DNA of 64,000 nt from contig JALOKP010000013.1 in NCBI GenBank assembly GCA_025456425.1, positions 480 to 64,479 of the forward strand, written 5' to 3'. This stretch comes from Acidobacteriota bacterium (GTDB lineage: Bacteria; Acidobacteriota; Polarisedimenticolia; J045). The notes below the pieces were generated by a model, which saw only the letters and a list, made by a program, of their open reading frames with translations, was not told where the DNA came from and ran no database searches. Within the stretch, counting starts at the first letter, position 1. Every line of letters starts with the position of its first letter. Positions 1,237 through 64,000 of this stretch are shown piece after piece. A program made the translations under genes and the position numbers.

Positions 1237-1237
1237 C

Positions 1238-2762: not shown

Positions 2763-2817
2763 CCTCCGGGGCGAAAGGTCTGCGAGCCTAGCACCCGCCG
2801 CCCGCGCACGGCAAGGT

Positions 2818-3360: not shown

Positions 3361-3369
3361 CCCCCTACT

Positions 3370-4140: not shown

Positions 4141-4254
4141 GCTCGATTCGTCACGCGTCGCGTGCGCGCACCGCGGGTCCCGCGCCGGGCCATCCGCCCG
4201 CCGCGAGGCAAACCGCGAACTCGCGAGGAATATAGGTTTTCCGCCGTCGAAGGG

Positions 4255-5178: not shown

Positions 5179-5195
5179 CAGGCGGCGGAGGGCGG

Positions 5196-7141: not shown

Positions 7142-7316
7142 GTCCGGCGCTCCACGGGAGTGGCACGCGCGGGCCGGCCCCGTCGAGGGGTCCTCCCGCG
7201 GGCGGGGCAAACATAGGGCTCCCGGTGCGGCGGTGTCAAAACGGGGGCGACCAGCTTCGAAAGGCCGGGGGACCGTGGCGGCCCTCCCGGCCCCCCGCCG
7301 GCCGGCCGGCCCGCGC

Positions 7317-8699: not shown

Positions 8700-8797
8700 C
8701 GGGGGTCTCCGGAGGGGGGCCGGGGGAGACTACCCCTGCGCGGGTCCGGGCGCCACGCCGGCGATTCCCGCAAGCCTCTCTGTTTGCAGACTTTACC

Positions 8798-8826
8798 TTG
8801 ACCGCGGGGAGCGATCCTCCTAGACT
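8798..8826 (+). promoter_or_regulatory. Candidate sigma70-type promoter for the IHF/HU-like gene
   Basis: TTGACC (8798-8803), a 17-nt spacer, then TAGACT (8821-8826), about 40 nt upstream of ATG 8869. A GGAGGAG Shine-Dalgarno sequence follows. Confidence 0.4.
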
Positions 8827-8868
8827 TCCCCGGCCCCGGCGACCGATCCGGCGGAGGAGAGTCCCTCG

Positions 8869-9207
8869 ATGGTCAAGGCCGACCTGATCCAGCGCGTTCA
8901 ACAGGCCCTGCTGGAACACCAGCGTGAGGGACGGCACGAGCTCCCGCCGGGGGACGACCCGGCGGAGGGCGCGCGCCGCGTATCGCACGGACTCGTGGTC
9001 GAGGCGGTCGAATCGTTGTTCGAGTCGCTCAAGGACGCGATGGCGCGCGGCGAGCGGATCGAGTTCCGCGGCTTCGGCGTGTTCCAGGTCAAGCCCAGAA
9101 AGCGCGGCGTCGGGCGCAACCCCCGGACCGGCCGCGAGGTCAAGATCCCGCCCGGGCGCACCGTCCGCTTCAAGCCGGGGAAAGAGCTGCGCGACATCGG
9201 CCCGTGA
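8869..9207 (+). CDS. IHF/HU-family DNA-binding protein (with an insertion in the N-terminal helical part)
   Basis: ERIEFRGFGVFQVKPRKRGVGRNPRTGREVKIPPGRTVRFKPGKELR is the canonical HU/IHF beta-arm. Confidence 0.8.
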   Translation: MVKADLIQRVQQALLEHQREGRHELPPGDDPAEGARRVSHGLVVEAVESLFESLKDAMARGERIEFRGFGVFQVKPRKRGVGRNPRTGREVKIPPGRTVRFKPGKELRDIGP

Positions 9208-9214
9208 GGAGGCC

Positions 9215-10225
9215 GTGAGCGGACCCTTCCTTCCCCCGACCGAACCCGCCGCCGCCCCCGAGCCGCCCGGGATCCCGGCCCCGGTTTCGCCCGCACCCGA
9301 GCCCCCGCTGCGACGACGGCCCCGCGTGCCGCGGCTGGCACTCGCGATGTTCCTGCTGACGGTGCTGACGACGCTCGACGTCGGCGTCTCGCTCTCGACC
9401 GGCGCCTCGATCCCCTTCGCCCTCGCCCGCGGCGAGATCGGGCTGGGCGATGCGCTGGCCCTGCTGCCGTCCGGGATCCCCTACGTCCTCGCGCTGCTCG
9501 GGTTCTTCGTCGCGCACGAGATGGGCCACTACCTCGCCTGCCGGCGCTACGGGGTCGACTGCACCGTCCCGTACTTCCTTCCGGTCCCGTCGGTCGTCTC
9601 GCTGATCGGGACCCTCGGGGCCCTGATCCGGATCCGGGGCCGGATCCCGACCCGCCGCGCGCTGTTCGACATCGGGATCGCCGGTCCCCTGGCCGGCTTC
9701 GCGGTGGCGATCCCGCTGCTGGTCGCCGGCACCCTGGCCGCGCCGCTCGGGCCGCCGGGCGCGGCACCCCGGGGCACGATCGTCTTCGGCGATTCGCTGC
9801 TCACCTGGGTGCTGGGCTGGCTGCTGCGGCCCGACGCACGCGAAGCCTCGCTGTTCCTGGACCCGATCTACCTGGCGGGCTGGGTCGGGGTCTTCGCCAC
9901 GGCGCTGAACCTGCTGCCGGCCGGACAGCTCGACGGCGGGCACATTCTCTACGCCCTCTCGCCCCGCGCCCACGCGCGGATGGCGTGGCTCGTTCCCGCC
10001 TTTCTGATCGCACTCGCGGCGACCCGCGTGCTGCGCTACGGCGAATGGGAGGCGGTGCTGCTGTGGGTGATCTGGTCGGCGCTGATCCTGCTCTTCGGTC
10101 GCCGGCACCCGCCCCCCGAGGCCTGGGAGCAGCGGCTGGGGCCAGGGCGCCTCGCGCTGGCGCTGGGCGCGCTGGCGATCCTGGTGCTGTGCTTCATGCC
10201 GGTCCCGCTCTCTTTCGTACCCTGA
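9215..10225 (+). CDS. M50-family site-2 metalloprotease (membrane)
   Basis: HEMGHY zinc motif (FFVAHEMGHYLACRRYG), multiple TM segments, and NLLPAGQLDGGHI (the second M50 motif). A GTG start after GAGGAGG is inferred; an alternative ATG (MFLLTV) lies downstream. Confidence 0.75.
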   Translation: MSGPFLPPTEPAAAPEPPGIPAPVSPAPEPPLRRRPRVPRLALAMFLLTVLTTLDVGVSLSTGASIPFALARGEIGLGDALALLPSGIPYVLALLGFFVAHEMGHYLACRRYGVDCTVPYFLPVPSVVSLIGTLGALIRIRGRIPTRRALFDIGIAGPLAGFAVAIPLLVAGTLAAPLGPPGAAPRGTIVFGDSLLTWVLGWLLRPDAREASLFLDPIYLAGWVGVFATALNLLPAGQLDGGHILYALSPRAHARMAWLVPAFLIALAATRVLRYGEWEAVLLWVIWSALILLFGRRHPPPEAWEQRLGPGRLALALGALAILVLCFMPVPLSFVP

Positions 10226-48964: not shown

Positions 48965-49606
48965 ATGCGATATCGATTCTCCTCAGCGGTCCTCGGTGGG
49001 ATCGTCCTTGCGGCGCTGCTCTCTGCCGCGCCCGCCACCGCGGGCGAACCCGGGCGGGTTTCGCCTCCCGGGCAGCGCGATCTCGCCGGGATCTGGTACC
49101 GCGTCGTCTATGACGGCGCCGCCAGCGAAGCGGGCGCGATCATCGTCGTGACGAAGGTCGACGCCGACACCTGGATTGCCGCGCCCGTCGTGCACATTCC
49201 GCCGCTCGTCCCACCTCCCCAGTATCCCGGCTTCCCGCCGACCGACGCCGCAGTCCCGTGGATCGTCCAGTTCCAACGGACGGGACAGAACACCTATCTC
49301 GTCACCTCGCTGTCGTACTACTCGGCGACCCAGGCTCCAGCCGGGCAACCGAAGACCGCCTGGGCCGGTGTGTGCAACGGACCGGGCATCCAGCAGGACG
49401 AGGACACGCTGACGATCGACTGGTACTGCTTCGCGTCGTGCAACCCGTGCTTCCCGGGCTGCTGGAACTTCGGCAGCCCCTACATCGCCTGCGATCCGGG
49501 GCGCCTCTGGGATCCGTTCCAGGATCCCACCGCGTTCTGTTCTGCAGTCGTCACCCCGGTCGAGTTCCGGAAGGTGCCGATGAGCGACGGGTGCGTCCCC
49601 GACTAG
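48965..49606 (+). CDS. Secreted hypothetical protein with Cys-rich C-terminus
   Basis: AAGGAG SD, ATG 48965, signal peptide LGGIVLAALLSAAPATA. The C-terminal half has 8 Cys (WYCFASCNPCFPGCWNF...IACDP...FCSAV...GCVPD). Confidence 0.55.
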   Translation: MRYRFSSAVLGGIVLAALLSAAPATAGEPGRVSPPGQRDLAGIWYRVVYDGAASEAGAIIVVTKVDADTWIAAPVVHIPPLVPPPQYPGFPPTDAAVPWIVQFQRTGQNTYLVTSLSYYSATQAPAGQPKTAWAGVCNGPGIQQDEDTLTIDWYCFASCNPCFPGCWNFGSPYIACDPGRLWDPFQDPTAFCSAVVTPVEFRKVPMSDGCVPD

Positions 49607-49657: not shown

Positions 49658-49705
49658 ATTGGTCGGGGTGCCGAGATTTGAACTCGGGACCCCCTGCTCC
49701 CGAAG
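49658..49705. repeat. attL-type direct repeat: displaced 3' fragment of tRNA-Pro
   Basis: 48/48 nt identical to 58518-58565 (attggtcggggtgccgagatttgaactcgggaccccctgctcccgaag). Confidence 0.9.
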
Positions 49706-49922
49706 AACGGCGAAACTACTTAACCTGTTGACTTTACAGGTCGCATCCCGCTCCATCCCGCTCGAGTGCGCTCGGTCCTGCAAAGAGCATTGCAAAGAGC
49801 GCGGCGCGGGGGAGGTATTCTGATCGTGCTTTCCGGGGGCGCACCTCGAGCTCGAGGGGCGGGTTTCCCGACCCGCCAGCGCCCCCGGGTTTCTCTCCTC
49901 GGGACCGCCACGGGAGGCGGAC

Positions 49923-50621
49923 ATGAAGCACACGACCATCGAGGTGCGCCCGCTGAGTATCGTGCTGCGCAGGCGGTGTCTCGCTGACCTGCGGAAGCAG
50001 CTCGAGGTGCACGTCCGCGCGTTCGTCTACCGGCCGACGCCGCCGACGGGGCTCGCCGGGACGCTGCCGATAGTGCTGCCGGATGACGCGCCGGCCGACG
50101 TGCGTCGCGCCCTGGACGCGCTCGCCGACGCAGTCTCCGGCGTCATCCTGGGCGCTGACCGGAAGGTCAAGCTCCACCACCGATACGCGGTGGCGGTGCG
50201 GCGCGAGGCCCACGAACTTGCCGGCACGGCGTTTGCGATCGAGTCCGATGCCCGCGAAGTCGAGCCGATGGGGGAGTTCCTTCGACAGAACCGAGAGGCC
50301 GCGCGTCGGCTCGGGCGGCTCCGTACCAGCACGACCGGCCGGCGGTCTACCCTGCCGACCGATGACACGTTGCGCGCGCTGGTCGCGGCGCTCGAGGCGT
50401 GGGTCCCCACGGCGCCCAGCGGGGCGCAGGCGGCGGTCGCGGCGCTCGAGCGGGGCATCCTCGCGGACTACCCGCGCACGCGGGCAGAGCACCGCGTGAC
50501 GCTCACGGGGAAGCTCGGAACGGCGCTCGCGTCGCGCGCGACGCCAGCCGGGAAGGCGCGCAGGATCATCGGCGCGTGGTTCGGCGTTGATCTCCGGAGA
50601 GTCCCGAACCCGGCGAAATAG
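49923..50621 (+). CDS. Hypothetical protein (first island ORF)
   Basis: GGGAGG SD 5 nt before the ATG. Protein-like composition, no recognised motif. An antisense ORF (49734..50492) is judged spurious. Confidence 0.5.
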   Translation: MKHTTIEVRPLSIVLRRRCLADLRKQLEVHVRAFVYRPTPPTGLAGTLPIVLPDDAPADVRRALDALADAVSGVILGADRKVKLHHRYAVAVRREAHELAGTAFAIESDAREVEPMGEFLRQNREAARRLGRLRTSTTGRRSTLPTDDTLRALVAALEAWVPTAPSGAQAAVAALERGILADYPRTRAEHRVTLTGKLGTALASRATPAGKARRIIGAWFGVDLRRVPNPAK

Positions 50622-50702
50622 ACCCCCGGCGCGGCGTTCGGTTTCGCCTACATTCGCGTCGCATCGTGCTCACGACCGGACGAAGCCGGTCTGGAGAACA
50701 CG

Positions 50703-50906
50703 ATGCAGAAGCACGACGCGGGTCCGCCTCATGACGCGCTGATCTACTCCGAGCCGCACGCGGCCCGGATGCTCGGGCTGGCGCCGGAGACCCTTCGGAA
50801 GCTGCGGTCCCGGGGGCTGATCGCGGCCGTCCGGATCGGACGACGTGTGCTCTACGAGCGGCGCGCGCTCGAGCAGTTCGTCGCCGAGATGCGGCGGGCA
50901 TCGTGA
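50703..50906 (+). CDS. Excisionase/AlpA-like helix-turn-helix DNA-binding protein
   Basis: YSEPHAARMLGLAPETLRKLRSRGLIAAVRIGRRVLYERRALEQFV is the HTH_17/excisionase-family pattern. Confidence 0.7.
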   Translation: MQKHDAGPPHDALIYSEPHAARMLGLAPETLRKLRSRGLIAAVRIGRRVLYERRALEQFVAEMRRAS

Positions 50907-51091
50907 TCCGCCCCGAGCGGTTCCGGCTCCTCGCGGCGGTCAACCGAACCATGGCCGATGCCGCGCTCGAGGTCGCGTGGTGCCACGAGCGGGACGGCGC
51001 CGCTCCCCCGGCCGCCGTCGAGACCGTCGCGAAGGCCGGCGCGGAACTGTTCAACATCCTGGCCGAGCTGCGGGAGGCCGGGGATCTGTGA
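50903..51091 (+). CDS. Small hypothetical protein
   Basis: ATGA overlap with the preceding gene and GTGA overlap with the following HNH gene suggest it is translated. No motif. Confidence 0.35.
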   Translation: MIRPERFRLLAAVNRTMADAALEVAWCHERDGAAPPAAVETVAKAGAELFNILAELREAGDL

Positions 51092-51639
51092 GCCCGACCT
51101 GGCGCCAAGTGCTCTACCGGGCCTACGCGCTCGGACACTCGGCGAAGGTGGGCGACCACGCGCCGGAGCTGTTCGCGCGGGAACGCTGGCAAGTCTGTAT
51201 CGCCCGCCCCTCGCGAGACCTGACGCTCCGGCTCGCCCGACGGATGGAGTGTATCGCCTGCGGTGAGCCGATCGCTCCGAACGGGACCGGCGATCACATC
51301 GTCGCCCGATCGCTCTGGGCCGCCCCGGAGGGGGCCGAGAATTACCTCCCGCTCTGCCAGCCGCACAACTCGAGCAAGGGGAGAAAGAACCTCCTCGCCT
51401 GGTGGCACGGCAAAGGCCTGCCACCCGCGGGGCTCGTGCCTGACCCGCTGCTGCAATTCGCGCGAGTCACCTATGCCTACGTCGCGCGGAACACTCTCGC
51501 CGACATGGACGCCCCGGCCGACGTGGTCGAGGCGCTCGAGGCGCTCGAGCTCGCGCTGCTGCCTAGCGTCGAGCACGTCACCGTGCTGCGGCAGGCGGCT
51601 ATCGACCAGGCGGCCGCCGCCCGCAAGGGGGGGGCATGA
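51088..51639 (+). CDS. HNH endonuclease domain protein
   Basis: CIACGEPIAPNGTGDHIVARSLW...ENYLPLCQPHNSSKGRKN (C-x2-C ... DH ... N ... C-x2-HN). The GTG start is inferred from the overlap. Confidence 0.7.
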   Translation: MSPTWRQVLYRAYALGHSAKVGDHAPELFARERWQVCIARPSRDLTLRLARRMECIACGEPIAPNGTGDHIVARSLWAAPEGAENYLPLCQPHNSSKGRKNLLAWWHGKGLPPAGLVPDPLLQFARVTYAYVARNTLADMDAPADVVEALEALELALLPSVEHVTVLRQAAIDQAAAARKGGA

Positions 51640-52457
51640 CACCGCGCGAGATGCGGCTCCTCTGGGTCGGCCTCGGGTATGACCGCGGCTGGTCGTTCAC
51701 CCCGCTGGACGGGAAGAAACCGCGGCTGTTCGGCTGGACGAAAGCGCCGCGCGAGACGCGCGAGCAGGCGCTCGCCTGGGCCGCCGCCGGCAACGTGGGC
51801 GTGCGGTGCGGCATCGTCTCTTACGCGCTGCTCGTGGTCGACGTCGACGTCCCGAAGGGCGCGACCTGGGAATGCCCCGTCCAAACGATCACGGTTCGCA
51901 CGGGCGGCGGCGGCCGGCACCACTACTTCGCGATCCCCGGCGGCGTGCACGTCCCGAACAGCTCGGGGAAGATCGGCCCGCACGTCGACGTCCGCGCCGA
52001 CGGCGGACAAGTCGTCTACCCGGGAAGCGTCCACCCGGCGACGGGCAAGGTTTACGACTGGCTCCCCGGCTGCGCTCCCGGTGAGGCGCCGCTCCGGGCC
52101 CTGCCGCACGACATCTTCCGGCTGCTGACCGATCCCGTGCCCGAGACGCGGGCGGTGCCGCCGGCGGGGCGCGTGGCAGCCTCCTCACGCTATGCGGCCG
52201 TGGCGCTCGAGCGCGAGCGGGACCGCGTTGCCGGCGCCCCCCGCGGCAGTCGCGGGACCACCCTCTACAGCGCTGCGGCCCGCATGGGCGAGCTGGTCGG
52301 CGCCAGCCTGATCGACGCGGCGACGGTCCGCTCCGCCCTGCTCTGGGCCGCCGAAGTCAACGGGCTGGCCGAGAGCGACGGGGAGGCGTCCGTCCTGCGC
52401 GAGCTCGAGCGCGGCCTATCTCTCGGGATCGCGCACCCCCGGGCGGTGACCGCATGA
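51636..52457 (+). CDS. Bifunctional DNA primase/polymerase (Prim-Pol, AEP superfamily) with PriCT-like C-terminal domain
   Basis: LLVVDVDVP (DxD), TGGGGRHHYF, VDVRADGGQVVYPGSVH. C-terminus YAAVALERERDRVAGAPRGSRGTTLYSAAARMGELV. Confidence 0.85.
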   Translation: MTPREMRLLWVGLGYDRGWSFTPLDGKKPRLFGWTKAPRETREQALAWAAAGNVGVRCGIVSYALLVVDVDVPKGATWECPVQTITVRTGGGGRHHYFAIPGGVHVPNSSGKIGPHVDVRADGGQVVYPGSVHPATGKVYDWLPGCAPGEAPLRALPHDIFRLLTDPVPETRAVPPAGRVAASSRYAAVALERERDRVAGAPRGSRGTTLYSAAARMGELVGASLIDAATVRSALLWAAEVNGLAESDGEASVLRELERGLSLGIAHPRAVTA

Positions 52458-53704
52458 CAACCGTCGATGACGTGCTCGCCGTCTACCGCCGGCACCTCTA
52501 CCTCGACGACCCCGGAGCAGTCTGGGTCACGCTCGCAACCTACGTCGCGAACCGCCGCCCCGGGACCCCGCTCTGGCTCCTGGTCGTGGCGCCCCCGTCG
52601 TCGGGCAAGACGGAGTACCTCCTGCCCCTGGTCGGCGCCCCGGACGTGACGTTCGTCTCCACGATCTCCTCCGAGGGCGCCCTGCTCTCCGCGACCGCTC
52701 GCAAGGAGCGCGGCAAGAACGCGACCGGCGGGCTCCTCCGGCAGATCGGGACGTTTGGCGTGCTCGTCCTGAAAGACTTCGGGTCGATCCTCTCCATGAA
52801 CCGCGACGCCCGCGCCGCCGTCATGGCCGCGCTGCGCGAGGTGTTCGACGGCGAGTGGACGCGCACAGTCGGAAGCGACGGCGGGCAGTCTCTCGCCTGG
52901 GCCGGCAAGGTCGGCGCGATCGGCGCCTGCACCCCCGTGATCGACCGCGCCCATGCAGTCATGACCGCCCTCGGGGACCGCTTCCTGCTCTACCGCCCGG
53001 ACGCGACCGCGACCGACCCCATGTGCAGCCGGGCCCTGAACCGCGACGGGCTCGAGCGGTCCATGCGGGCCGACCTCTCCGCCGCCGTGACCGATCTCCT
53101 CGCGCCGCTCGACCTGTCCGCGAACCCCGCCCACCTCTCCCCCGCGGACGTGGTCCGCCTGACCGCCTGGGCGAAGCTGGTCGCCCGCGGCCGGGCCGCC
53201 GTCGAGCGCGACAGCTACACGCGAGAGATCGAGCTCGTCCTGGGCGCCGAGGGCCCCGCCCGGGTGGCGATCCAGCTCCGCCAGCTCCTCGACGGGCTCC
53301 GCACCCTCGGGGCGGACGAGACGAGCGCCTGGGGCCTGGTCGGCAAGGTCGCGCTGGATACCATCCCGATCCGCCGGCGGCGGCTGCTCGAGCACCTCCG
53401 CTCCGCGGCCGACCCGCTGGACACAACCGACCTCGCCGTGCTGATCGACCACCCGGCGAACACGACCCGCCGCGACCTCGAGGACCTCACCGCTTACAAG
53501 CTGGTACAGCGCATCCCGAACGGGCCGGGCAGAGCGGACCTCTGGCGTATTACCTCGTGGGCGCTCGAGGTCTGGGCCACCGCCGAGCGGGCAACCTTCT
53601 CCGAAATGTCGGAAGACGTACACACCCCCTTTAATGAATTCCGAAAATCACAGACAGACATTTCGGAGAAGGTTCCCCCAGCCGTCGCGAGGCCGGGCGC
53701 ATGA
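52454..53704 (+). CDS. P-loop NTPase, putative replicative helicase partner of Prim-Pol (DUF3987-like), with C-terminal winged-helix-like region
   Basis: Walker A VVAPPSSGKTE and Walker-B-like GVLVLKDFG. ATGA overlap with the Prim-Pol gene. Confidence 0.65.
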   Translation: MTTVDDVLAVYRRHLYLDDPGAVWVTLATYVANRRPGTPLWLLVVAPPSSGKTEYLLPLVGAPDVTFVSTISSEGALLSATARKERGKNATGGLLRQIGTFGVLVLKDFGSILSMNRDARAAVMAALREVFDGEWTRTVGSDGGQSLAWAGKVGAIGACTPVIDRAHAVMTALGDRFLLYRPDATATDPMCSRALNRDGLERSMRADLSAAVTDLLAPLDLSANPAHLSPADVVRLTAWAKLVARGRAAVERDSYTREIELVLGAEGPARVAIQLRQLLDGLRTLGADETSAWGLVGKVALDTIPIRRRRLLEHLRSAADPLDTTDLAVLIDHPANTTRRDLEDLTAYKLVQRIPNGPGRADLWRITSWALEVWATAERATFSEMSEDVHTPFNEFRKSQTDISEKVPPAVARPGA

Positions 53705-53825
53705 CCCTTTCAATCTTCGCGACCCCCGACCCATTTAACGCCCGGGTGCGAATTTGGGTGGGCGCGGGCTTCTCGCTCGGTCGCTGCGAAAAAACGGCGC
53801 CGGCGGCCGGCGGATCGGAGGCCCT

Positions 53826-54239
53826 GTGAGTCACGTCCAGCGTCCATGCTCGCAGCCCGGCTGCCCGGCCCTGGTCAGCCCGGGCACGGGCTCACGCTGC
53901 CCGGCCCATCGTCGGCGGGACACCCGATACCGGGACCGCGGCACCCGGCAGCAGCAGGGATACGGGGGCGCGTGGTTGGCGATCCGGGCCCGGGTGCTGC
54001 GCGAGGAGCCGATCTGTCCGTGCGGCCGGCCGGCGACCCAGGTCGACCACGTCCAACCTCTGACGCGAGGCGGGACCCACGAGCGCGGCAACCTGCAAGC
54101 GCTCTGCGCGTCGTGCCACAACGTGAAGACGAAGCGTCAAGCCGCGGCTGTTTTTTCGGGCGGAAGCCGTGAGAAGCCGCGCCCCAACCACACGCACGCG
54201 AATCCAAGAATCCGAACGGGGGCAAATCATGGGCGCTAG
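53826..54239 (+). CDS. HNH endonuclease (phage packaging-associated type)
   Basis: CSQPGCPALV...RCPAH...CPCGRPATQVDHVQPLTRGGTHERGNLQALCASCHNVKT. GGAGG SD 5 nt before the GTG. Lies directly upstream of terS. Confidence 0.8.
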   Translation: MSHVQRPCSQPGCPALVSPGTGSRCPAHRRRDTRYRDRGTRQQQGYGGAWLAIRARVLREEPICPCGRPATQVDHVQPLTRGGTHERGNLQALCASCHNVKTKRQAAAVFSGGSREKPRPNHTHANPRIRTGANHGR

Positions 54240-54675
54240 GGGTCCGATCAGGGGCACGCCGGCGGCGCGGTACTGCGGCCCGTCCGGTCTGACGGCGCAG
54301 GGCGGGACGCGTGCGAAGGCGATCGAGGCCGACCCGTTGCCGACCGAGCCGCCGAGCTGGTTGCCGGCGCGGGCGAAGGCCCTGTGGCGGGCCACGCTGC
54401 CGCAGATCACGGCCCGGGCGACGCGGGCGGACCGGGAGGTCTTCGCGCAATGGTGCCTGGCCTGCGCGGCCGTGCGCGACCTGGCGCCGATCGTGGAGAA
54501 GGACCCGGCCCGGGGAGACGAGCTGCGGGCCCAGCTCCGGGCGGCGGCGATGTTGGCTCGGGAGCTGGGGCTGACGCCGGCGAGCCGGTCGCGCATCCCC
54601 GAGGTCGAGGTGGTGGAGAAGCAGCAGGACGAGAAGGCCCGGCGCGAGGCGACGATCGCCGCGCTGATTCGGTGA
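54229..54675 (+). CDS. Phage terminase small subunit, P27 family
   Basis: PSWLPARAKALWRATLPQI...REVFAQWCLACAAVRDL...AMLARELGLTPASRSRI matches the remembered P27-family TerS pattern. Start at MGARGP overlaps the HNH end. Confidence 0.72.
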   Translation: MGARGPIRGTPAARYCGPSGLTAQGGTRAKAIEADPLPTEPPSWLPARAKALWRATLPQITARATRADREVFAQWCLACAAVRDLAPIVEKDPARGDELRAQLRAAAMLARELGLTPASRSRIPEVEVVEKQQDEKARREATIAALIR

Positions 54676-54822
54676 TGACAGCGGGTTGATCACGGCCAAG
54701 GTCCTTTTCGGCGCGTGAAGTTCTCGTCAACCGCGATCTACTTGACTCTCTTCGCAATTTCGCCCAATCTCCCCGCGCGAGCACGGAGCGACACGAGGGG
54801 GAGCTCTTTCGCGGAGGCGGCG

Positions 54823-55377
54823 ATGAAGAGAGTGGAATCGCATGCCCTAGTTGCCGCGTTAGCTCTGGGCGGATTTCTCATGGTTGCCGGCTGCAACCGT
54901 CCGGGGATAGACGGCAATGAACCTCTCGCCCCGAGAAGGACTGGGAGCGCGAAGGAATCCATCGAGAAGTGTAGTTCGGCGCTCCGGGCGAATCTGGGGA
55001 GACCATTCGTGGAATTCGGCCTGCGCGATCGCGCGGGAAATATTCACAGTACCCGGGGCTTCAACGACAAGACCACCGCCTTTTTTGTGGCTGGTGCCAA
55101 TTGCCCCGGAACCAGAATCTGGGTTCCGGAACTTGCTGAGAACGGCTGGAGAATTGGCGGGCTGCAGTACGACCGCCTTGTATTCCTGGCGGTGAGCGAT
55201 CGCGCTCTTCCGGTGCCTACCGGACTACCGCAGTACAAGGTCGAATGGCCAATGCCGGGCTACCTCTCCTCCTGCACGATGTACCCGGCGGTATACGTCG
55301 TGTCGGAAGACGGAGTGTTCACGGGATTCAAACTGGGCCGAGTGGGCGCCCCCATAGTGGCAGACGAAAGCAAGTGA
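54823..55377 (+). CDS. Lipoprotein with thioredoxin-like (TlpA/redoxin) fold, single-Cys active-site remnant
   Basis: Lipobox LMVAGC. FGLRDRAGNIHSTRGFNDKTTAFFVAGANCPGTRIWVPEL parallels the redoxin F-x-L-x-D-x-G...WCxxC...P-x-L layout, but with CPGT. Lies in the lower-GC segment. Confidence 0.55.
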   Translation: MKRVESHALVAALALGGFLMVAGCNRPGIDGNEPLAPRRTGSAKESIEKCSSALRANLGRPFVEFGLRDRAGNIHSTRGFNDKTTAFFVAGANCPGTRIWVPELAENGWRIGGLQYDRLVFLAVSDRALPVPTGLPQYKVEWPMPGYLSSCTMYPAVYVVSEDGVFTGFKLGRVGAPIVADESK

Positions 55378-55393
55378 GAATGGGAGGTGGTGT

Positions 55394-56092
55394 ATGAGGT
55401 ACAAGCGTATGTTCCTATGCGGGCTGCTCGTCCTTCTCTCTCTCTCAGGAGTATTCGTAGCCGCAGCCTCTCAGTGCGATTGGGATCCGGTCACCGAAGT
55501 TTGCAATGGCGCGTGTGAACCGGGCGAGCCTGACTGTGACCGCTGGTACGGCTGTGGCTGCTCGATCTGCGAGCCGTGGCAAGAGGGCTACTCGCTCGAG
55601 TTGGTCATGACTCGGGACGGCGGCTCGGGTCCTCCGCACAGCGTCGGGTCGGCATACTCCGGTTCCTTGGCGCAGTCGACCGGCGGAACTATTCAAAACC
55701 GCCGCGAATGGGGAACCGCCATCGATGCAGTTCCGGCGGTCTCGGATCTCCAGCTAACGGCGGAAGTTAGGCAGGGGGGGAACTCCGTTACGCGCAGACT
55801 TGTTATCACCTCACTCTACGCGAGGATCCCCACCTTCGTTCACTCTCGGACCAGTCCAGATAGCACCGGGGATAACGTGTTCGCGCTTTTTGGCGGCCTG
55901 CCAAGCGTGCTGACCCTGAACACTCAAACCGGAGCGGTCACGGGTACGCTCTACACCACCATGACGAATGCGTTCTACGGCGCTAATGACCGCATCGGGA
56001 TCGAGATGGACGTGACCGGGACGTTTGACTTCAACGCCATGCGACTCACCTTGGATCTCGGCGGCACCGGCATGCTGAAGACCGCAACCTAG
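55394..56092 (+). CDS. Secreted protein with N-terminal 7-Cys cluster and beta-rich C-terminal domain
   Basis: Signal peptide FLCGLLVLLSLSGVFVAAA. CDWDPVTEVCNGACEPGEPDCDRWYGCGCSIC. No family recognised. Confidence 0.55.
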   Translation: MRYKRMFLCGLLVLLSLSGVFVAAASQCDWDPVTEVCNGACEPGEPDCDRWYGCGCSICEPWQEGYSLELVMTRDGGSGPPHSVGSAYSGSLAQSTGGTIQNRREWGTAIDAVPAVSDLQLTAEVRQGGNSVTRRLVITSLYARIPTFVHSRTSPDSTGDNVFALFGGLPSVLTLNTQTGAVTGTLYTTMTNAFYGANDRIGIEMDVTGTFDFNAMRLTLDLGGTGMLKTAT

Positions 56093-56829
56093 CCGGGCTG
56101 CCTCGGCGCCGGCGGACTTGAACCGCCGGCGCCGTAGCGGCTTGAGAATGCAATGGCCGCCGCGCCGCCCGGCACGAATACCGTCAGCGTCAGGACCTGA
56201 GAACTCGACAGCGGTCCGAGCCAGAGCGGGGTGTCGGCTCTGAGGAAGTCCGTTGAGAACCGGATGACACCATACCCGAACAGTAGCGTGCCGATCGATC
56301 GCCAAGTAGGAGCGGGGCGGAGTAGATAGACTCCCAGCAGAGCAATCAGGAAGGCCTCATAGAGCGGAACAGGGTGCAGGGGCAGAGGGCCCAAGGATCT
56401 GCCCGCGGTGGTACCGAGGTTGTACCTGACTCCCCATGGCAGCCTTGTGGGCATGCCGAAGCAACAGCCCGCCATGAAGCACTGGATCCGACCGAGCACG
56501 GCCGATATGGCAACGGCGGGCGCCAAGCAGTCGAGGACTGGACCCACCGGCACGCGAAGAAGTAGAGCCCCAATCGCCGCGCCAGCGCAACCACCGATGA
56601 GTCCTCCCAGAAGAGACCGCGGAGGAGCGAGAGGAGCAGATACGGTCGCCTGCATTCCGGCGAGCCACGTCATCTGACCGAAAAAAACAAACCAGATGAA
56701 TCGGCTACCGACAAGCCCGCCTAGTACGGCCGGGCAGACCAATATCTTCGATCTAAGATCGAGACACCGCCAACTCACGCCCAGGAATACCGATACTCCG
56801 AGAGCGAGGGGCAGGAGTTCGTTTGGCAT
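56089..56829 (-). CDS. lgt: Prolipoprotein diacylglyceryl transferase (Lgt)-family protein, island-borne paralog
   Basis: LGRIQCFMAGCCFGMPTRLPWGV, HPVPLYEAFL and LLFGYGVIRFSTDFLRAD match Lgt signature blocks. Start at MPNELLP is inferred. Confidence 0.7.
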   Translation of the reverse strand: MPNELLPLALGVSVFLGVSWRCLDLRSKILVCPAVLGGLVGSRFIWFVFFGQMTWLAGMQATVSAPLAPPRSLLGGLIGGCAGAAIGALLLRVPVGPVLDCLAPAVAISAVLGRIQCFMAGCCFGMPTRLPWGVRYNLGTTAGRSLGPLPLHPVPLYEAFLIALLGVYLLRPAPTWRSIGTLLFGYGVIRFSTDFLRADTPLWLGPLSSSQVLTLTVFVPGGAAAIAFSSRYGAGGSSPPAPRQPG

Positions 56830-57215
56830 GCACGATCTCCGGCGCCAAACCGACGCGCAAGCGCTATATCCCGCTTTCCAGCAGCTGCTCAGGGTAGCAC
56901 AGGCGGAGGGGACTGAAGGCGACACCGCGGCCGGGTTGGTTCCGGCGCCGGTCGCGACGGCCGGCCAGGGAGCCAGAGAGGTTCAACCGCACGTCCGGGA
57001 GGGACGTTGACTTCGACGGCCGGCAAGGTGCAGTCTTGTTGCGTAGGCGGGACCGCCGAGTGCGTCAACACCCGACGGCCCCTAACCCGCGACGTGGAGA
57101 TAGCCACGATGCGAGCTGTCCGAAGCGTACCGCATCCTGCGATCGTTCGGGGCGTTCTGCCGCCGGCAAGTGCCGGTCAGCCGTCGTGCGTCTCCACCGC
57201 GAGGAGGAGGAGACG

Positions 57216-57407
57216 ATGACCACGCGCACGCTCGACCTGATCCCCCACGCACGTCTGGCGGACCTGCCGCCCGAGACACTCGACGCGATCCTGGCCGAGG
57301 TCGACGCGATGCTCGAGCACGCCGACGATACCGACCCGGCCCAGTACGAGGCGGCCGCGGACCGGTTCTTCGCCGCGATCCGGGCGGCGGCCGAGGGGGA
57401 GGAGTAG
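57216..57407 (+). CDS. Small acidic hypothetical protein upstream of int
   Basis: Strong SD GAGGAGGAGGAG 4 nt before the ATG. Its TAG stop abuts the integrase ATG (TAGATG). Confidence 0.4.
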   Translation: MTTRTLDLIPHARLADLPPETLDAILAEVDAMLEHADDTDPAQYEAAADRFFAAIRAAAEGEE

Positions 57408-58541
57408 ATGGCCGTTCACAAGTACGAACGGAGCGACGGGAGTACGGTCTACTTCGCCAGCTACCGCGGGCCGGACGGGAAGCGGATCACGGACGAGCCG
57501 AAGGGCCGGCGCACCGTGAAGCCGGACGCGTCCGCGAAGGAGCACGCCCGCGCCCGGCTGGCGGTCAGCAACTACGCGAGCACGCGCCGGACCGAAGTCG
57601 AAAACGGGACGTGGCAGCCGCTCGAGAGCGACCGGCCGAAGGAAAAGGGGCTCACGGTCCGGGCGCTCGCGAAGCGGTTCACGGCGCAATACCGGAGCCG
57701 GAACGGGAGCGTCACCTTCTACGAGCAGCGCCTCGCGGCGATCGACGACGAGCTCGGCGCCCTGCTCGCCTCGCGCGTGACGGTCGACGACGTGGAGCGG
57801 TTCAAGAATCGGCGGTCCGACAAGGCCGGGCCCGCGACGGTCAAGAAAGACCTCGTGGCGCTCTCCAAGGTCTTTCGGTGGGCGCAGCACCGCGGGCTCG
57901 TGAAGGACAACCCGGCCGAGGCCCGGCGCGTCCCCCGCCCTGCTGAGCCGCGGCGCAAGGTGGTGTTCCTCGACGATGACCAGGAGGCGGCGCTGCTCGC
58001 GGCCGCGGACCTGTGGCTCTCGCGCATCGTCCGGTGGATGCTCGGGACGGGCATGGACCGGGGTGAGGTCGTCGCGCTCCGGTGGGAGAACGTCGACCTC
58101 ACCCGCGGGACGGTCTACGCGCCGCGGGCGAAAACCGGGGTGGCCCGGAGCATCGCCCTGACCGACACCCTCCGGGCGCTGCTCGAGGAGTGCCGGAAGT
58201 CGGACCCCTCGCACGGGGGCGAGGTCGTCTCGCTCGAGGCCCGGCGGGAGGGGCTGGTCTTCCTGAACGCGCACGGCGGCCCGGTGACGGTGGCCGGGCT
58301 GAAGACTGCTTTCGTGAAGCTGTACCGGCGGGCGGGGGTGACGACCGGCTCGCCGGCGAAGGTGCTCCGGCACACGTTCGCGACGCGGGCCCTCGAGGCG
58401 GGCGTGCACCCCTCGGTGCTGGCCGATCTGCTCGGGCACACGAGCATTGCAAAAAGCCGAGACGGCGCACGCGCCCCGCAAGGGAGCCTGACGCATCATG
58501 CTGACTTTTCGGGGGTTATTGGTCGGGGTGCCGAGATTTGA
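57408..58541 (+). CDS. int: Tyrosine-recombinase-family integrase; the C-terminal catalytic Tyr motif could not be found (possibly defective)
   Basis: N-terminal SAM-like/arm region, GMDRGEVVALRWENVDL, AKTGVARSIAL, LRHTFATRALEAG, LLGHTSIA. The ORF then reads KSRDGARAPQG... into the att repeat without Y-x-H. Confidence 0.75.
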   Translation: MAVHKYERSDGSTVYFASYRGPDGKRITDEPKGRRTVKPDASAKEHARARLAVSNYASTRRTEVENGTWQPLESDRPKEKGLTVRALAKRFTAQYRSRNGSVTFYEQRLAAIDDELGALLASRVTVDDVERFKNRRSDKAGPATVKKDLVALSKVFRWAQHRGLVKDNPAEARRVPRPAEPRRKVVFLDDDQEAALLAAADLWLSRIVRWMLGTGMDRGEVVALRWENVDLTRGTVYAPRAKTGVARSIALTDTLRALLEECRKSDPSHGGEVVSLEARREGLVFLNAHGGPVTVAGLKTAFVKLYRRAGVTTGSPAKVLRHTFATRALEAGVHPSVLADLLGHTSIAKSRDGARAPQGSLTHHADFSGVIGRGAEI

Positions 58542-58565
58542 ACTCGGGACCCCCTGCTCCCGAAG
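58518..58565. repeat. attR-type direct repeat (3' 46 nt of the intact tRNA-Pro plus 2 nt)
   Basis: Identical to 49658-49705. It ends one base past the anticodon loop, on its 5' side. Confidence 0.9.
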
Positions 58566-58596
58566 CAGGTGCGCTACCAGGCTGCGCTACACCCCG
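58520..58596 (-). tRNA. tRNA-Pro (anticodon CGG)
   Basis: Hand-folded 77-nt cloverleaf: CGGGGTG acceptor, GCGC/GCGC D stem, CCTGC-TTCGGGA-GCAGG anticodon arm, CCGAG-TTCAAAT-CTCGG T arm, encoded CCA. Confidence 0.9.
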
Positions 58597-58638
58597 ACCG
58601 GTTCAGAGCCGGAGGAAACCGGTTCAGAGCCGGAGGAA
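58597..58638. repeat. Perfect 21-bp tandem duplication immediately upstream of tRNA-Pro
   Basis: accggttcagagccggaggaa occurs twice (58597-58617 and 58618-58638). Each unit contains CCGG-N7-CCGG. Confidence 0.85.
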
Positions 58639-60303: not shown

Positions 60304-63300
60304 ATGACGGCATTCCCGGAGCAGCTCCGGGCCGGAGCGCGGCGCGCCATCGCGGCGCGTGCGCTCGGCGTGGCGCTGACCCTGGGGGCCCTCGGGCTCG
60401 CCCTCGCGGCGCCTCCCCTTCCGGCGCCCGGCCCCGCCGCTGCCGACCCGCGCGCCGACTGGCTGCAACGCGTCGAACTGCTCCGGTCGGCCTGGCGCGA
60501 CCCCTCCGCCCCGGTACCGCCCCCCGAGGAGATCGCCCGGCGCGTCGCGGACGAGCGGCGGATGGAGCAGGCGCTCGTCGCGCTCACCGGCGCGCCGCTC
60601 GAGCCCTCCGCGATCGGCCGCGAGTGGAGCCGGATGGTCGAGCGCTCGCGCGACCCGGCGCGGCTCCTGGCGCTGGCGGAGGCCCTCGACTTCGACCGCC
60701 TCGCGCTGGTCGAGACGCTGGCGCGCCCGGCGCTGGTCGAGCGCCGACTGCGCGCCTGGTGGGAGGCGCGGGAGGCCGCGGCGGGGCCGGCCCGCGACGA
60801 GGCTGCTGCGCTGCGCGCCGCCGTCGAGGCGGGCGAGATCGACCCGCGCTCCCCTCACGCCCGGCGCGAGTCCGTCCTGTACCTGCCGTCCGGGTGCCCG
60901 GCGGAACTGCTGCAGCGCGACGACGCGCAGCCGACCGACGATCCCGCGCGCTGGCAGGAACTGCGCGGACGCTGGGCCGGCCTGGGCGAGCCGGGCCCGG
61001 TGGTCGCGGGCGGCGGCGGCGCGTTGTTCGAGGTGCGGCTGGCGGACCTCGACTGCGGCGCGGTCGAGGTCGCACGCTTCGCGGTGCCGGCCGTCTCCTT
61101 CGCCGCGTGGTGGGCCGGCGCGGCGGCCTCCTTCGAGCCCGCACCGGCCCCTCCGACGCTGACGCGCGAAGTCCTGGCCGGGCTGCCGCTCCCACTCGCG
61201 CCCGGGGCCCCGCTCGGCGGAGACGGACCCTCCGGCTGCGACGAGGCCTGGAACGGGGCGAGTCTCGACGACGTGCCCGACCCGCGCGAGGGACCCACCG
61301 CGGTCTGGACCGGCGCGGAGATGATCGTCTGGGGCGGTCGGGCCGGCGAGCCGCTCGCGACCGGCGGGCGCTACGACCCGGCGACCGACTCGTGGCGGTC
61401 GCTCCGGCAGCTCGGTGCGCCGGCCGCCCGCTCCTGGCACACCGCCGTCTGGACCGGGAGCCAGATGCTCGTCTGGGGCGGCATCGACGGCGACCCGCTC
61501 GGCAACGGGGCCGCGTACGATCCCGCGTCCGATGCCTGGAGCGCGATCCCCGCGCTGGGCGCCCCGGCGGCCCGCTCGCGTCACCTCGCGGCGTGGACCG
61601 GCAGCGAGATGCTGATCTGGGGCGGCGAGGGGCCGGGGTTCACCAACCTCGCCGACGGCGCGCGCTACGACCCCGCGTCCGGGGCCTGGAGCCCGCTCCC
61701 CGCGAGCGGCGCGCCCTCGCCGCGCAAGGACTTCGCCGGGGCCTGGACCGGGACCGAGCTGGTCGTCTGGGGCGGGTTCGACCTGGGCGTCTACCTGGGC
61801 GACGGCGCGGCCTTGAACCTGGCGGCGGGTACCTGGCGCCCGCTCTCCGGGCTCAACGCGCCGGCCGCGCGGCGCCAGCACACCGCGGTCTGGACCGGGA
61901 CCGAACTGGTCGTCTGGGGCGGCGCCAACGCGACGAGCTACTTCTTCAGCGGCGGCCGCTACGACCCCGCGACCGACTCGTGGCGCCCGACCAGCGAGGC
62001 GAACCCGCCCGCCGGTCGGCGCTACCACACGGCGGTCTGGTCCGGGTCGCGGATGCTGGTCTGGGGTGGCGAGTCGTCCGGTGCCGGCGAACTGCTCGCG
62101 ACCGGCGGCGCCTACGACCCGTCCGCCGACACCTGGAACGAGGTCCCGGCGACCGGCGCCCCGAGCGCGCGGCGGTTCCACGCCGCGGTCTTCACCGGCA
62201 CCGAGATGCTGGTCTGGGGCGGCCGGAGCGCGACGCGCAGCGAGGACACCGGGGGGCGCTGGGCACCCCTGGCGTCGTCCTGGCAGGCGATCTCGCGCGG
62301 AGCGGGACCGGCCCGGCGGGCGCGACACAGCGGGACGTGGACCGGTGCCGAGTTCATCGTGTGGGGCGGGGCCGACGAGGTCGACCTGGGCGACGGCGCG
62401 CGCTACGAGCCCGCGACCGACGCCTGGCGCGCGACGACCGCGCAGGGCGCCCCGGTCCCGCGCAAGGACCACACGGCCGTCTGGACCGGCACCCGGCTGA
62501 TCGTGTGGGGCGGTCGCCAGGCCGAGGACACGCGGCTCAACACGGGCGGCCGTTACGACCCCGCGGGGGATCGCTGGTTTCCAACCTCGGCGGCCGGCGT
62601 GCCGACGCCGCGCTGGGGCCACAGCGCGGTCTGGACCGGGAGCCGGATGATCGTCTGGGGTGGCAAGGAGACCGGGATCCCGACCGACACCGGGGGGCGC
62701 TACGACCCGGTCGGCGATGCCTGGCTGCCGACCGACACCAGCACGGCCCCGTCGTTCCGGCGCTGGCACACCGCCGTCTGGACCGGCAGCGAAATGATCG
62801 TCTGGGGCGGCGAGGCGGCCGAGATCCTCGGTGACGGGCGGCGCTACGACCCGGTGACCGACCGCTGGTCCTCGATGCGGACCGGCGGTGCGCCGCCGCC
62901 GCGCTACCACCACACCGCGGTCTGGACCGGGACCGAGATGATCGTCTGGGGCGGATACGGCGCGGGCCAGCTCGGTGACGGCGCCCGCTACCGGCCCGCC
63001 GATGACAGCTGGGCGGCGTTGCCCTCGCTCGGCGCCCCCGCGCCGCGCTACTACCACACCGCGGTCCTGACCGGGACCGAGATGATCGTCTGGGGCGGCC
63101 TCGGGAACGGCAGCCTGCAGAGCGGCGGGCGCTTCTCGCTGGCCAGCGGCACCTGGTCGCCGACCACGCTGGTCGAGGCTCCCGCGGCGCGCCACCTGCA
63201 TGCCGCCCGCTGGACCGGGGGCGAGATGATCGTCTGGGGCGGGCTGGGCGGCAGTACGCTGGGCAGCGGCAACCGCTACGCCCCGGGCGCCCAGGCCGAC

Positions 63301-64000
63301 GGCGACGGCGACACCTTCCCCGGCTGCGCCGACTGCGACGACGCCGACGCCGGCACCTTCCCGGGGGCGCCGCAGCTCTGCGACGGGAAGAACAACGACT
63401 GCAGCGATCCCGCGTGGCCGGCCGTCCCCGGGACGGAGCGCGACGACGACGGCGACGGCACCTCCGAGTGCCAGGGCGACTGCCGCGACACCGACGCCTC
63501 GACCTACCCCGGCGCCCCGCAGCTCTGCGACGGGAAGAACAACGACTGCAGCGACCCGGGATGGCCCGCGGTGCCGGCGACGGAACTGGACGACGACGCA
63601 GACGGGACCTCCGAGTGCCAGGGCGACTGCAACGACGCCGACGGCTCGGTCTACCCCGGCGCGCCGCAGCTGTGCGACGGCAAGAACAACGACTGCAGCG
63701 ACGCCGCCTGGCCGGGCGTCCCGCCGGACGAGGTCGACGACGACGGCGACGGCACCTCCGAGTGCCGAGGCGACTGCAACGACGCCAACCCGAACGTTCG
63801 CCCCGGAGCGCCGGAGGTCTGCAACAACGGGATCGATGACGACTGCGACGACCTGGTCGACGCGGCCGACCCGCAGTGCTGCCCCGACGCCGACGGCGAC
63901 GGGGTGAAGAGCGCCGCGTGCCAGCCCGGCGGCGACTGCAACGACGCCGACAACGCGGTCTACCCCGGCGCCCCGCAGCTCTGCGACGGCAGGAACAACG
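60304..64000 (+). CDS. Giant secreted repeat protein: N-terminal domain + 14 Kelch-like beta-propeller blades + MopE-type Cys-rich metal-binding-motif repeats (3' end outside window)
   Basis: This frame (positions = 1 mod 3) is open from ATG 60304 to the window end and is absent from the ORF track because it has no stop. Signal/TM ALGVALTLGALGLALAAP. 14x [A-V-W-T-G-x-E-M-I-V-W-G-G...G-x-R-Y-D-P...D-x-W]. Then DGDG..C.GDC.D.D....PGAPQLCDGKNNDCS units. Confidence 0.78.
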   Translation, partial: MTAFPEQLRAGARRAIAARALGVALTLGALGLALAAPPLPAPGPAAADPRADWLQRVELLRSAWRDPSAPVPPPEEIARRVADERRMEQALVALTGAPLEPSAIGREWSRMVERSRDPARLLALAEALDFDRLALVETLARPALVERRLRAWWEAREAAAGPARDEAAALRAAVEAGEIDPRSPHARRESVLYLPSGCPAELLQRDDAQPTDDPARWQELRGRWAGLGEPGPVVAGGGGALFEVRLADLDCGAVEVARFAVPAVSFAAWWAGAAASFEPAPAPPTLTREVLAGLPLPLAPGAPLGGDGPSGCDEAWNGASLDDVPDPREGPTAVWTGAEMIVWGGRAGEPLATGGRYDPATDSWRSLRQLGAPAARSWHTAVWTGSQMLVWGGIDGDPLGNGAAYDPASDAWSAIPALGAPAARSRHLAAWTGSEMLIWGGEGPGFTNLADGARYDPASGAWSPLPASGAPSPRKDFAGAWTGTELVVWGGFDLGVYLGDGAALNLAAGTWRPLSGLNAPAARRQHTAVWTGTELVVWGGANATSYFFSGGRYDPATDSWRPTSEANPPAGRRYHTAVWSGSRMLVWGGESSGAGELLATGGAYDPSADTWNEVPATGAPSARRFHAAVFTGTEMLVWGGRSATRSEDTGGRWAPLASSWQAISRGAGPARRARHSGTWTGAEFIVWGGADEVDLGDGARYEPATDAWRATTAQGAPVPRKDHTAVWTGTRLIVWGGRQAEDTRLNTGGRYDPAGDRWFPTSAAGVPTPRWGHSAVWTGSRMIVWGGKETGIPTDTGGRYDPVGDAWLPTDTSTAPSFRRWHTAVWTGSEMIVWGGEAAEILGDGRRYDPVTDRWSSMRTGGAPPPRYHHTAVWTGTEMIVWGGYGAGQLGDGARYRPADDSWAALPSLGAPAPRYYHTAVLTGTEMIVWGGLGNGSLQSGGRFSLASGTWSPTTLVEAPAARHLHAARWTGGEMIVWGGLGGSTLGSGNRYAPGAQADGDGDTFPGCADCDDADAGTFPGAPQLCDGKNNDCSDPAWPAVPGTERDDDGDGTSECQGDCRDTDASTYPGAPQLCDGKNNDCSDPGWPAVPATELDDDADGTSECQGDCNDADGSVYPGAPQLCDGKNNDCSDAAWPGVPPDEVDDDGDGTSECRGDCNDANPNVRPGAPEVCNNGIDDDCDDLVDAADPQCCPDADGDGVKSAACQPGGDCNDADNAVYPGAPQLCDGRNN
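61270..63270 (+). repeat. Coding tandem array of 14 Kelch-like units, period 144-153 nt
   Basis: The W/F of the W-T-G motif falls at 61306, 61450, 61594, 61744, 61891, 62038, 62191, 62338, 62482 and so on. Counted by eye. Confidence 0.75.
63298..64000 (+). repeat. Coding tandem array of MopE-type Cys-rich units, core period 147 nt
   Basis: ccgcagct[c/g]tgcgacgg[g/c]aagaacaacgactgcagcga recurs at 63370, 63517 and 63664, and in diverged form at 63973. Confidence 0.8.

Follow-up and report, generated by a model that had tools for sequence, protein, structure and literature searches.

A low-GC cassette on a phage-satellite-like island pairs a divergent Lgt-family gene with a rare family of Cys-rich, predicted secreted proteins

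What does a mobile island in an Acidobacteriota bacterium carry between its small-terminase gene (terS) and its integrase gene (int)? We analysed a stretch of 64,000 nucleotides (nt) of contig JALOKP010000013.1 (hereafter the window), in which the terS-int slot of such an island holds three genes in a segment of low G+C content (GC). An earlier reading made from the letters of the window (the sequence-only reading) had noticed the drop in composition, had described the genes as encoding a lipoprotein (here P1), a secreted protein with a Cys cluster (P2) and a convergent member of the Lgt family of prolipoprotein diacylglyceryl transferases (the Lgt-like protein), and had suspected an envelope-remodelling or exclusion module. 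We found that the core of this cassette recurs in at least five other genomes, and hence that it represents a real gene module, one not described before. Its conserved unit consists of P2 and the Lgt-like gene, with P1 and a protein with an HExxH motif and tetratricopeptide (TPR)-like repeats as frequent companions. The cassette comprises the following features:

54700-56950, no strand: low-GC cargo segment (GC 0.616; GC at third codon positions (GC3) 0.66-0.73 across its three genes)
54823-55377, plus strand: P1, predicted lipoprotein with a peroxiredoxin/TlpA-like layout (184 amino acids (aa); GGAGG 6 nt upstream)
55394-56092, plus strand: P2, predicted secreted protein (232 aa): signal peptide, then 7 Cys within residues 28-59, then a conserved immunoglobulin (Ig)-like C-domain
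56094-56144, no strand: GC-rich hairpin between the convergent genes (-44.1 kcal/mol; z = -5.8)
56089-56829, minus strand: Lgt-family membrane protein of the GRxxCFxxGCCFG class (246 aa; ATG start, GGAG upstream)

In 300-nt windows, GC was 0.59-0.65 at ~54700-56950 and 0.70-0.79 on either side. Using 2250-nt windows (mean over the whole stretch 0.729, standard deviation 0.032), the minimum of the 64 kb was found at the window beginning at position 54651, with a GC of 0.612, whereas the next lowest value elsewhere was 0.677. A recount of the 60-nt lines used by the sequence-only reading gave 0.52-0.72 (mean 0.61) in the segment versus 0.72-0.78 in the vicinity of 53.0 kb. The drop that it reported between terS and int is thus present, and is the strongest in the 64 kb. 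GC3 was 0.66, 0.73 and 0.68 in P1, P2 and the Lgt-like gene, respectively, against 0.80-0.94 in the rest of the island and 0.93-0.98 in flanking host genes. By its composition, the segment is thus supported as foreign cargo that lies between terS and int of a mobile island bounded by attachment (att) repeats.

All three genes were recovered as first described, including the overlapping stop codons of P2 and the convergent Lgt-like gene on the palindrome CTAG at 56089-56092. The hairpin at 56094-56144, which has no clear U-tract, lies directly 3' of the P2 stop and within the final ~17 codons of the Lgt-like open reading frame (ORF). Because of this position, the sharing of CTAG seems incidental, a consequence of the Lgt-like frame running across an inter-gene hairpin. 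Promoter and terminator scans yielded nothing exceeding the shuffled background, and no repeats delimiting the cassette within the island were found. The NCBI annotation of the metagenome-assembled genome (MAG) GCA_025490975.1 (L001/L035) contains no protein for the Lgt-like ORF, while the annotation of the Joint Genome Institute (JGI; L036) contains a 246-aa LGT protein; in the annotation of another MAG, P1 and P2 are shortened to 122 aa and 71 aa. Owing to such omissions and truncations, the cassette is poorly represented in protein databases.

P2 carries seven Cys in 32 residues (positions 28, 37, 41, 48, 54, 56 and 59). Its signal-peptide junction, AASQ|C28, departs from the lipobox pattern [LVI][ASTVI][GAS]C. 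Among 1.84 billion representatives, 30 relatives (E <= 1e-3) were detected when HMMER was run exhaustively, and a word-indexed search with P2 returned its own cluster only. Most members of the family are 155-260 aa long, and the full-length ones consist of a signal peptide, a hypervariable segment with 6-9 Cys and a conserved C-domain with the motifs WG..D, R.I.V..F.A.IPSFVHS...P..TG.N and L.N.YY. None of the family proteins had a Pfam annotation. P2 scored 19.1 bits against He_PIG, below the gathering score of 24, and sequence and profile searches of the PDB gave sub-threshold matches only, to the lamin tail. With phmmer, however, the C-domain matched the repeats of giant surface proteins in which Ig-like He_PIG or DUF11 domains abound (E 1e-19). 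In all 15 full-length members the first Cys follows the signal peptide within a few residues, and only three of these have a canonical lipobox there, for example P0103 with VIAG|C. The number of Cys in the Cys-rich segment was odd (7 or 9) in 12 of the 15, which is a hint rather than a test. Judged from sequence, these proteins are a rare, unannotated and new family of Cys-rich, predicted secreted proteins.

Further loci were found with a degenerate DNA pattern for the IPSFxHS...P..TGxN motif and by look-ups of P2 family members, and were scored with local hidden Markov models (HMMs) and BLAST:

L028: P1-like gene (lipobox LAA|C), P2-like gene (lipobox VIAG|C) and Lgt-like gene, all co-directional
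L031: partial P1-like gene, P2-like gene, Lgt-like gene
L027: P2-like gene, 3'-cut Lgt-like gene, followed by an HExxH/TPR lipoprotein; beside Cas3/Cas4-Cas1
L029: P2-like gene, then an Lgt-like gene split across two frames
L030: P2-like gene, with a probable Lgt-like N-terminus behind it where the contig stops
L033: P2-like gene between two P1-like fragments
L016 and L034: HExxH/TPR protein adjoining a P2-like gene

An Lgt-family gene adjoins the P2 homologue in six of the seven loci with visible downstream DNA, counting the window and the weak fragment in L030, and the P2 proteins share only 23-36% identity. Since genomes hold one or two Lgt genes, this adjacency is far beyond chance. L028, L031 and L033 also have P1-like genes beside the P2 homologue. 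The GC of the module was below that of its flanks in seven of the eight other loci examined, the exception being L033, which has very little flank. Hence, the co-occurrence on which the sequence-only reading had made its proposal depend was found: P1-like, P2-like and Lgt-like genes stand together in L028 and L031, and P2-like and Lgt-like genes in L027 and L029. The constant companion of the Lgt-like gene is P2, however, and not the lipobox protein P1.

The HExxH/TPR protein is the third recurrent neighbour of P2. It is 615-627 aa long and was found at L016 860-2707 (minus strand), L027 8458-10341 (minus strand) and L034 3-260, with a lipobox in the L027 copy. Its motif HE(W/M)GH..GL...HC....CVM resembles that of zinc proteases, and no Pfam peptidase family matched it. 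L027 also contains a CRISPR-Cas (clustered regularly interspaced short palindromic repeats) locus with Cas3 HD and a Cas4-Cas1 fusion, and a Kelch-repeat protein, beside the P2/Lgt-like pair (86-8038 and 10537-11856). In the same metagenome contig, the Lgt-like gene is cut short at its 3' end, where an IS256-like transposase (Mutator family) adjoins it.

How close is the Lgt-like protein to a true Lgt? It matched the Pfam family LGT (PF01790) with 95.4 bits against a cut-off of 24.9, covering profile positions 48-236 of 240. Its scores fell far under the equivalog cut-offs of NCBIfam (44.8 versus 118.9 for TIGR00544, and 72.1 versus 334 for NF000778), the match to E. coli Lgt (PDB 5AZB) reached only E = 1.3e-5, and its closest non-self relatives share ~36% identity. 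R114, G125, R190 and R197 of the ORF correspond to R143, G154, R239 and R246 of E. coli Lgt, all of them invariant alignment columns, and a Tyr occupies the position of Y235. The canonical signature G142-RLGNFINGELW-G154, with N146 and E151, and H103-GGL are replaced: the signature motif GRIQCFMAGCCFG has Cys at the positions of N146 and E151, and the H103 region reads SLLGGLIG, with Leu instead of His. All Lgt-like proteins of the module keep the equivalents of R143, R239, R246 and G154 and an HP..Y motif. Residues essential in E. coli Lgt are Y26, H103, R143, N146, G154 and R239 (PMC4728403; PMC13251419), and the specificity for protein substrates is set by arm-2, H103 and the head domain (PMC13251419). 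Among distant Lgt homologues, N146C/E151C and non-His103 variants occur (PMC13251419).

Because the ORF of the window begins inside the first transmembrane segment (TM1), beta1, arm-1 and the equivalent of Y26 are missing; the in-frame sequence upstream of the start is not Lgt-like. The protein truly belongs to PF01790, within the known N146C/E151C class, without being a canonical Lgt. The earlier assignment to the Lgt family is right, but the scores lie far below the equivalog cut-offs, and N-terminal elements that E. coli Lgt cannot do without are absent. The 64-kb window holds no other ORF of the Lgt family. No P1 or P2 neighbours were seen beside the nearest database homologues of the Lgt-like protein, P0003, P0004 and P0015. 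A tblastn search of phage genomes with the Lgt-like protein gave seven weak partial matches, all unannotated, of which H2 and H7 are flagged UNVERIFIED.

P1 has a canonical lipobox, LMVAG|C24, after its signal peptide, and its relatives have LAA|C or LVA|C. The redoxin-like layout that the sequence-only reading had seen in P1 remains plausible but weak: the match to AhpC-TSA (PF00578) was sub-threshold (14.9 bits versus 26; E = 0.027), and so was the top PDB match, the Mycobacterium tuberculosis peroxiredoxin Rv2238c/MT2298 (E 0.088), obtained with a profile of five P1-like sequences. A word-indexed search with P1 returned only its own cluster, labelled 'peroxiredoxin family protein' by the NCBI Prokaryotic Genome Annotation Pipeline (PGAP). 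P1 carries the motif NCPGT at the position of the redoxin CxxC, which had been taken for a reduced CxxC. The remnant Cys is not kept among the relatives, however, with CPGT in the window, CVAT in L028 and no Cys in L031. Because this Cys is not conserved, P1 is probably a thioredoxin-fold lipoprotein and not a thiol-redox enzyme.

This finding bears on a thiol-redox relay, in which the membrane GCxxxGCC motif of the Lgt-like protein and the thioredoxin-fold P1 would carry out disulfide oxidation or isomerisation in P2, much as DsbB/VKOR and DsbA do for their substrates. Such a relay would make sense of the 7 Cys in 32 residues of P2, the redoxin-like layout of P1 and the three Cys in the Lgt-like signature motif. 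It fits poorly with the single Cys of P1 at the CxxC position and its exchange or loss in the relatives, with the retention of the arginines that bind phosphatidylglycerol, and with the wide occurrence of the C...CC motif in the broad Lgt subclass, where genes in a housekeeping context have it too. We consider the relay very unlikely.

The most far-reaching reading, with a probability of roughly 0.3, is a private lipidation pathway: an Lgt paralog that would have co-evolved with Cys-rich, Ig-like surface proteins and would lipidate a Cys outside a lipobox, mobilised by a satellite as surface-remodelling and possibly exclusion cargo. The low-GC segment is best explained as a horizontally acquired envelope cassette, carried as accessory cargo by an 8.9-kb island in tRNA-Pro that resembles a phage-inducible chromosomal island (PICI). 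P2 would be exported by the Sec pathway and would present, in this order, the junction Cys, a hypervariable disulfide-rich stretch and the conserved Ig-like domain. The Lgt paralog would act as a private transferase that puts diacylglyceryl or a related lipid on the junction Cys; for the housekeeping Lgt, P2 would be a poor substrate, since most family members lack a canonical lipobox at this Cys. That the paralog lipidates the junction Cys of P2 is the mechanism we favour, at somewhat short of even odds. Lipidation would then anchor the Ig-like, disulfide-knotted P2 on the envelope, and P1 would bind the Cys-rich segment of P2, or act as its chaperone, without catalytic activity. On a satellite, such a cassette would serve as lysogenic-conversion or surface-remodelling cargo. 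Our data show the composition, the limits of the island, the families of the genes and the recurring synteny; the relation of enzyme and substrate, the transfer of lipid and any effect on phages are inferred from synteny alone.

Several results weigh against this private pathway. The junction Cys of P2 could simply be the first Cys of a disulfide domain after cleavage by signal peptidase I. The excess of odd Cys counts was noticed post hoc and drops to 10 of 15 when the Cys of the C-domain are counted. The window copy of the Lgt-like protein is without beta1, arm-1 and any Tyr at the position aligned with Y26, and in E. coli Lgt, the Delta-N9 truncation or mutation of Y26 abolishes activity (PMC4728403; PMC13251419). 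The N146C/E151C class includes apparently housekeeping genes, such as P0004 in an mreBCD-pbp2-rodA operon. In a neighbour-joining tree the four Lgt-like proteins of the module group together, but without bootstrap support. Two other copies of the gene look damaged, in L027 by an IS256-like element and in L029 by a frame split. The cassette sequence is 100% identical across all assemblies found and thus offers no variation from which a ratio of nonsynonymous to synonymous substitution rates (dN/dS), and thereby selection, could be measured. Finally, single-sequence AlphaFold models of P1 and P2 were unusable, with a mean predicted local distance difference test (pLDDT) score of 40.

Part of this evidence would equally be expected of a decaying passenger, in which the Lgt-like gene would be an inactive remnant, only P1 or P2, both or neither would function, and the synteny would reflect common descent. 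The missing N-terminal elements, essential in E. coli, and the disrupted copies in L027 and L029 point in this direction, as do the orientation of the Lgt-like gene (convergent with P2 in the window, co-directional with it in L027, L028 and L031), the terminator-like hairpin that its frame crosses before the stop, and its omission by PGAP in GCA_025490975.1, although JGI calls it. Moreover, the integrase of the island in the window is truncated as well. Yet the ORF is intact over 246 aa with GGAG upstream, it retains the catalytic arginines and most of the family-invariant residues, its GC3 exceeds GC1 and GC2 as in a coding frame, and the identical sequence was recovered from many samples. 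We regard decay as unlikely.

A further explanation is the one closest to the sequence-only reading, namely that the extra Lgt and its lipoprotein substrate P1 form a superinfection-exclusion or anti-phage defence module. P1 has the canonical lipobox, the genes occupy the int-proximal accessory slot of a satellite-like island, a CRISPR-Cas locus lies beside the module in L027, and phage lipoproteins that exclude superinfection are well known, such as Ltp of TP-J34 (PMC3952083) and Llp of T5 (bioRxiv 10.64898/2026.03.26.714494). However, a protein with a canonical lipobox requires no private Lgt, and P1-like genes were found in only three other loci, whereas P2 is the constant partner. None of the three proteins matched a PADLOC or PHROG family, and IMG/VR yielded no gene of the P2 family. 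Moreover, the module is not confined to recognisable mobile elements, with no integrase or phage genes in the visible DNA of the other loci. A defence role built on P1 therefore seems distinctly unlikely.

The hypervariable Cys-rich N-segment of P2 and its tight linkage to a multi-pass membrane protein could also suggest a secreted toxin or bacteriocin, to which the polytopic Lgt-like protein would confer immunity from within the membrane. In its conserved part, however, P2 resembles the Ig-like repeats of giant He_PIG/DUF11 surface proteins and not a toxin, the Lgt-like protein keeps residues of an enzyme, and the export and processing genes typical of bacteriocin loci were not seen. This makes a toxin-immunity pair highly improbable.

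How does the pairing of P2 with an Lgt paralog compare with known systems? About 10% of genomes carry two lgt copies, some of them on plasmids with conjugation lipoproteins, and in the Bacillus cereus group plasmid-borne lgt co-occurs with such lipoproteins (PMC13251419). A mobile element with its own lgt and a lipoprotein is thus less unusual than the sequence-only reading had supposed. Plasmid-borne Lgt-family genes were also found in our analysis, at <=38% identity. The plasmid-borne second lgt and the cassette have in common an Lgt-family gene with exported or lipidated proteins on a mobile element. They differ in the carrier, here a phage-satellite-like island, and in the neighbour, here a Cys-rich family with a mostly non-canonical junction Cys rather than lipoproteins of a type IV secretion system. 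Hence, accessory Lgt paralogs on mobile elements are a known theme, and the satellite carrier and the P2-family partner are new.

Another close parallel is the group of N146C/E151C homologues represented by MSMEG_5408 of Mycolicibacterium (M.) smegmatis, which carries Y26H and N146C and is presumed to have low activity (PMC13251419). Like the window copy, these homologues have Cys at N146 and E151, a non-conserved H103 and an altered Y26, and keep R143 and R239; unlike them, the window copy is without the entire beta1/arm-1 segment and is syntenic with the P2 family. With E. coli Lgt (PDB 5AZB/5AZC; PMC4728403) the window copy shares the Pfam family and the equivalents of R143, G154, Y235, R239 and R246, but it lacks beta1, arm-1 and Y26, has Leu for H103 and Cys for N146 and E151, and has a shorter head domain. 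The exclusion lipoproteins (T5 Llp, TP-J34 Ltp, Cor and TraT-like proteins) likewise are small envelope or surface proteins in an accessory position of mobile elements. In contrast to the cassette, they rely on the host Lgt and bring no transferase of their own, and their sequences show no similarity to the cassette proteins.

Lgt is commonly viewed as one housekeeping enzyme that recognises its substrates by a single rule, the lipobox. The recurrent pairing of a divergent Lgt with an exported family offers a concrete test of private substrates or altered specificity in Lgt paralogs, a question that recent studies of arm-2, H103 and the head domain have opened (PMC13251419). If true, private lipidation of P2 would extend protein lipidation past the canonical lipobox rule. 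Furthermore, the cassette adds an envelope module to the accessory repertoire of phage satellites, which in Acidobacteriota have hardly been described. The P2/Lgt-like pair is small (~1.5 kb) and intact in L028 and L031, so direct synthesis and testing are feasible.

What kind of element carries the cassette? The island measures 8.9 kb, is bounded by perfect 48-bp repeats and is integrated in a tRNA-Pro gene. Its features are, apart from the cassette:

49658-49705, no strand: attL, left copy of a perfect 48-bp direct repeat (100% identical pair, spacing 8860)
50703-50906, plus strand: HTH_17 (AlpA/excisionase-like) regulator (PF12728, E 4.8e-11)
51636-52457, plus strand: Prim-Pol replication protein (PF09250, E 1.2e-29)
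52454-53704, plus strand: 416-aa replication-associated protein (42%-identical homologue in an IMG/VR phage contig)
53826-54239, plus strand: HNH endonuclease (PF01844)
54229-54675, plus strand: small terminase subunit, P27 family
57216-57407, plus strand: 63-aa ORF just upstream of int, with no assigned function
57408-58541, plus strand: tyrosine integrase (377 aa here; 390 aa and intact in other assemblies)
58518-58565, no strand: attR, the right-hand 48-bp copy, which coincides with the 3' part of tRNA-Pro
58520-58596, minus strand: tRNA-Pro(CGG), the integration target

The att repeats bear out the earlier placement of the segment as cargo between terS and int of a mobile island. No large terminase, portal, capsid or tail genes were found within the island, and because of this gene content its anatomy looks like that of a PICI-like phage satellite. 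It shares with PICIs the size of ~9 kb, the integrase at a tRNA site, the AlpA-like helix-turn-helix protein, the primase-type replication module, the small terminase without large terminase or structural genes, and the accessory slot beside int. It differs from them in its Acidobacteriota host and in the combination of HNH endonuclease and P27-type small terminase.

Compared with four other assemblies (L001, L002, L003 and L006), the integrase in the window is shortened by an 89-bp deletion at 58442/58443, which shifts the frame and removes the C-terminal AAIVDRYAHATDRL region (RYAH) with the catalytic Tyr. The copy in the window may have lost its ability to excise; alternatively, the deletion could stem from assembly. 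The Acidobacteriota MAG GCA_025490975.1, a JGI contig of 336 kb and many Logan assemblies contain the same island. One of these, L002 (a contig of 8979 bp from Logan SRR12684590), corresponds to window positions 49658-58547, from the first base of the att repeat through the whole island. L002 terminates 30 nt (k-1) into the att repeat, and L039, a contig of the chromosomal flank from the same run, halts 30 nt into it too. These ends fit a circular or concatemeric excised island at a coverage above that of the chromosome, and they are the sole hint of helper-dependent excision and packaging. No empty tRNA-Pro site was seen among the contigs carrying the left-flank gene.

Searches with the 416-aa protein, the Prim-Pol protein and the integrase found no related islands in IMG/VR or in GTDB representative genomes. 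The sole real match was to a true phage contig with a homologue of the 416-aa protein (L010, IMGVR_UViG_3300045932_000098), in which this homologue (42% identity) and a large terminase lie at 3381-4604 and 8072-9577, respectively. This viral contig may represent the helper-phage lineage of this type of satellite.

Three further observations concern the surroundings of the island. Immediately left of attL, the product of a host gene at 48965-49606 (plus strand) is a secreted, Cys-rich protein of 213 aa that matches no Pfam family; by HMM it is not related to P2. Directly upstream of tRNA-Pro and before pcm, the 21-nt unit ACCGGTTCAGAGCCGGAGGAA occurs in two perfect tandem copies at 58597-58638. 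Towards the end of the window, at ~63300-64000 (L001 18000-19170), BLAST revealed internal repeats with copies of 75-83% identity in a 1679-aa ORF that has no Pfam match, and in this repeat region L001 and the window assembly differ in length by 21 nt.

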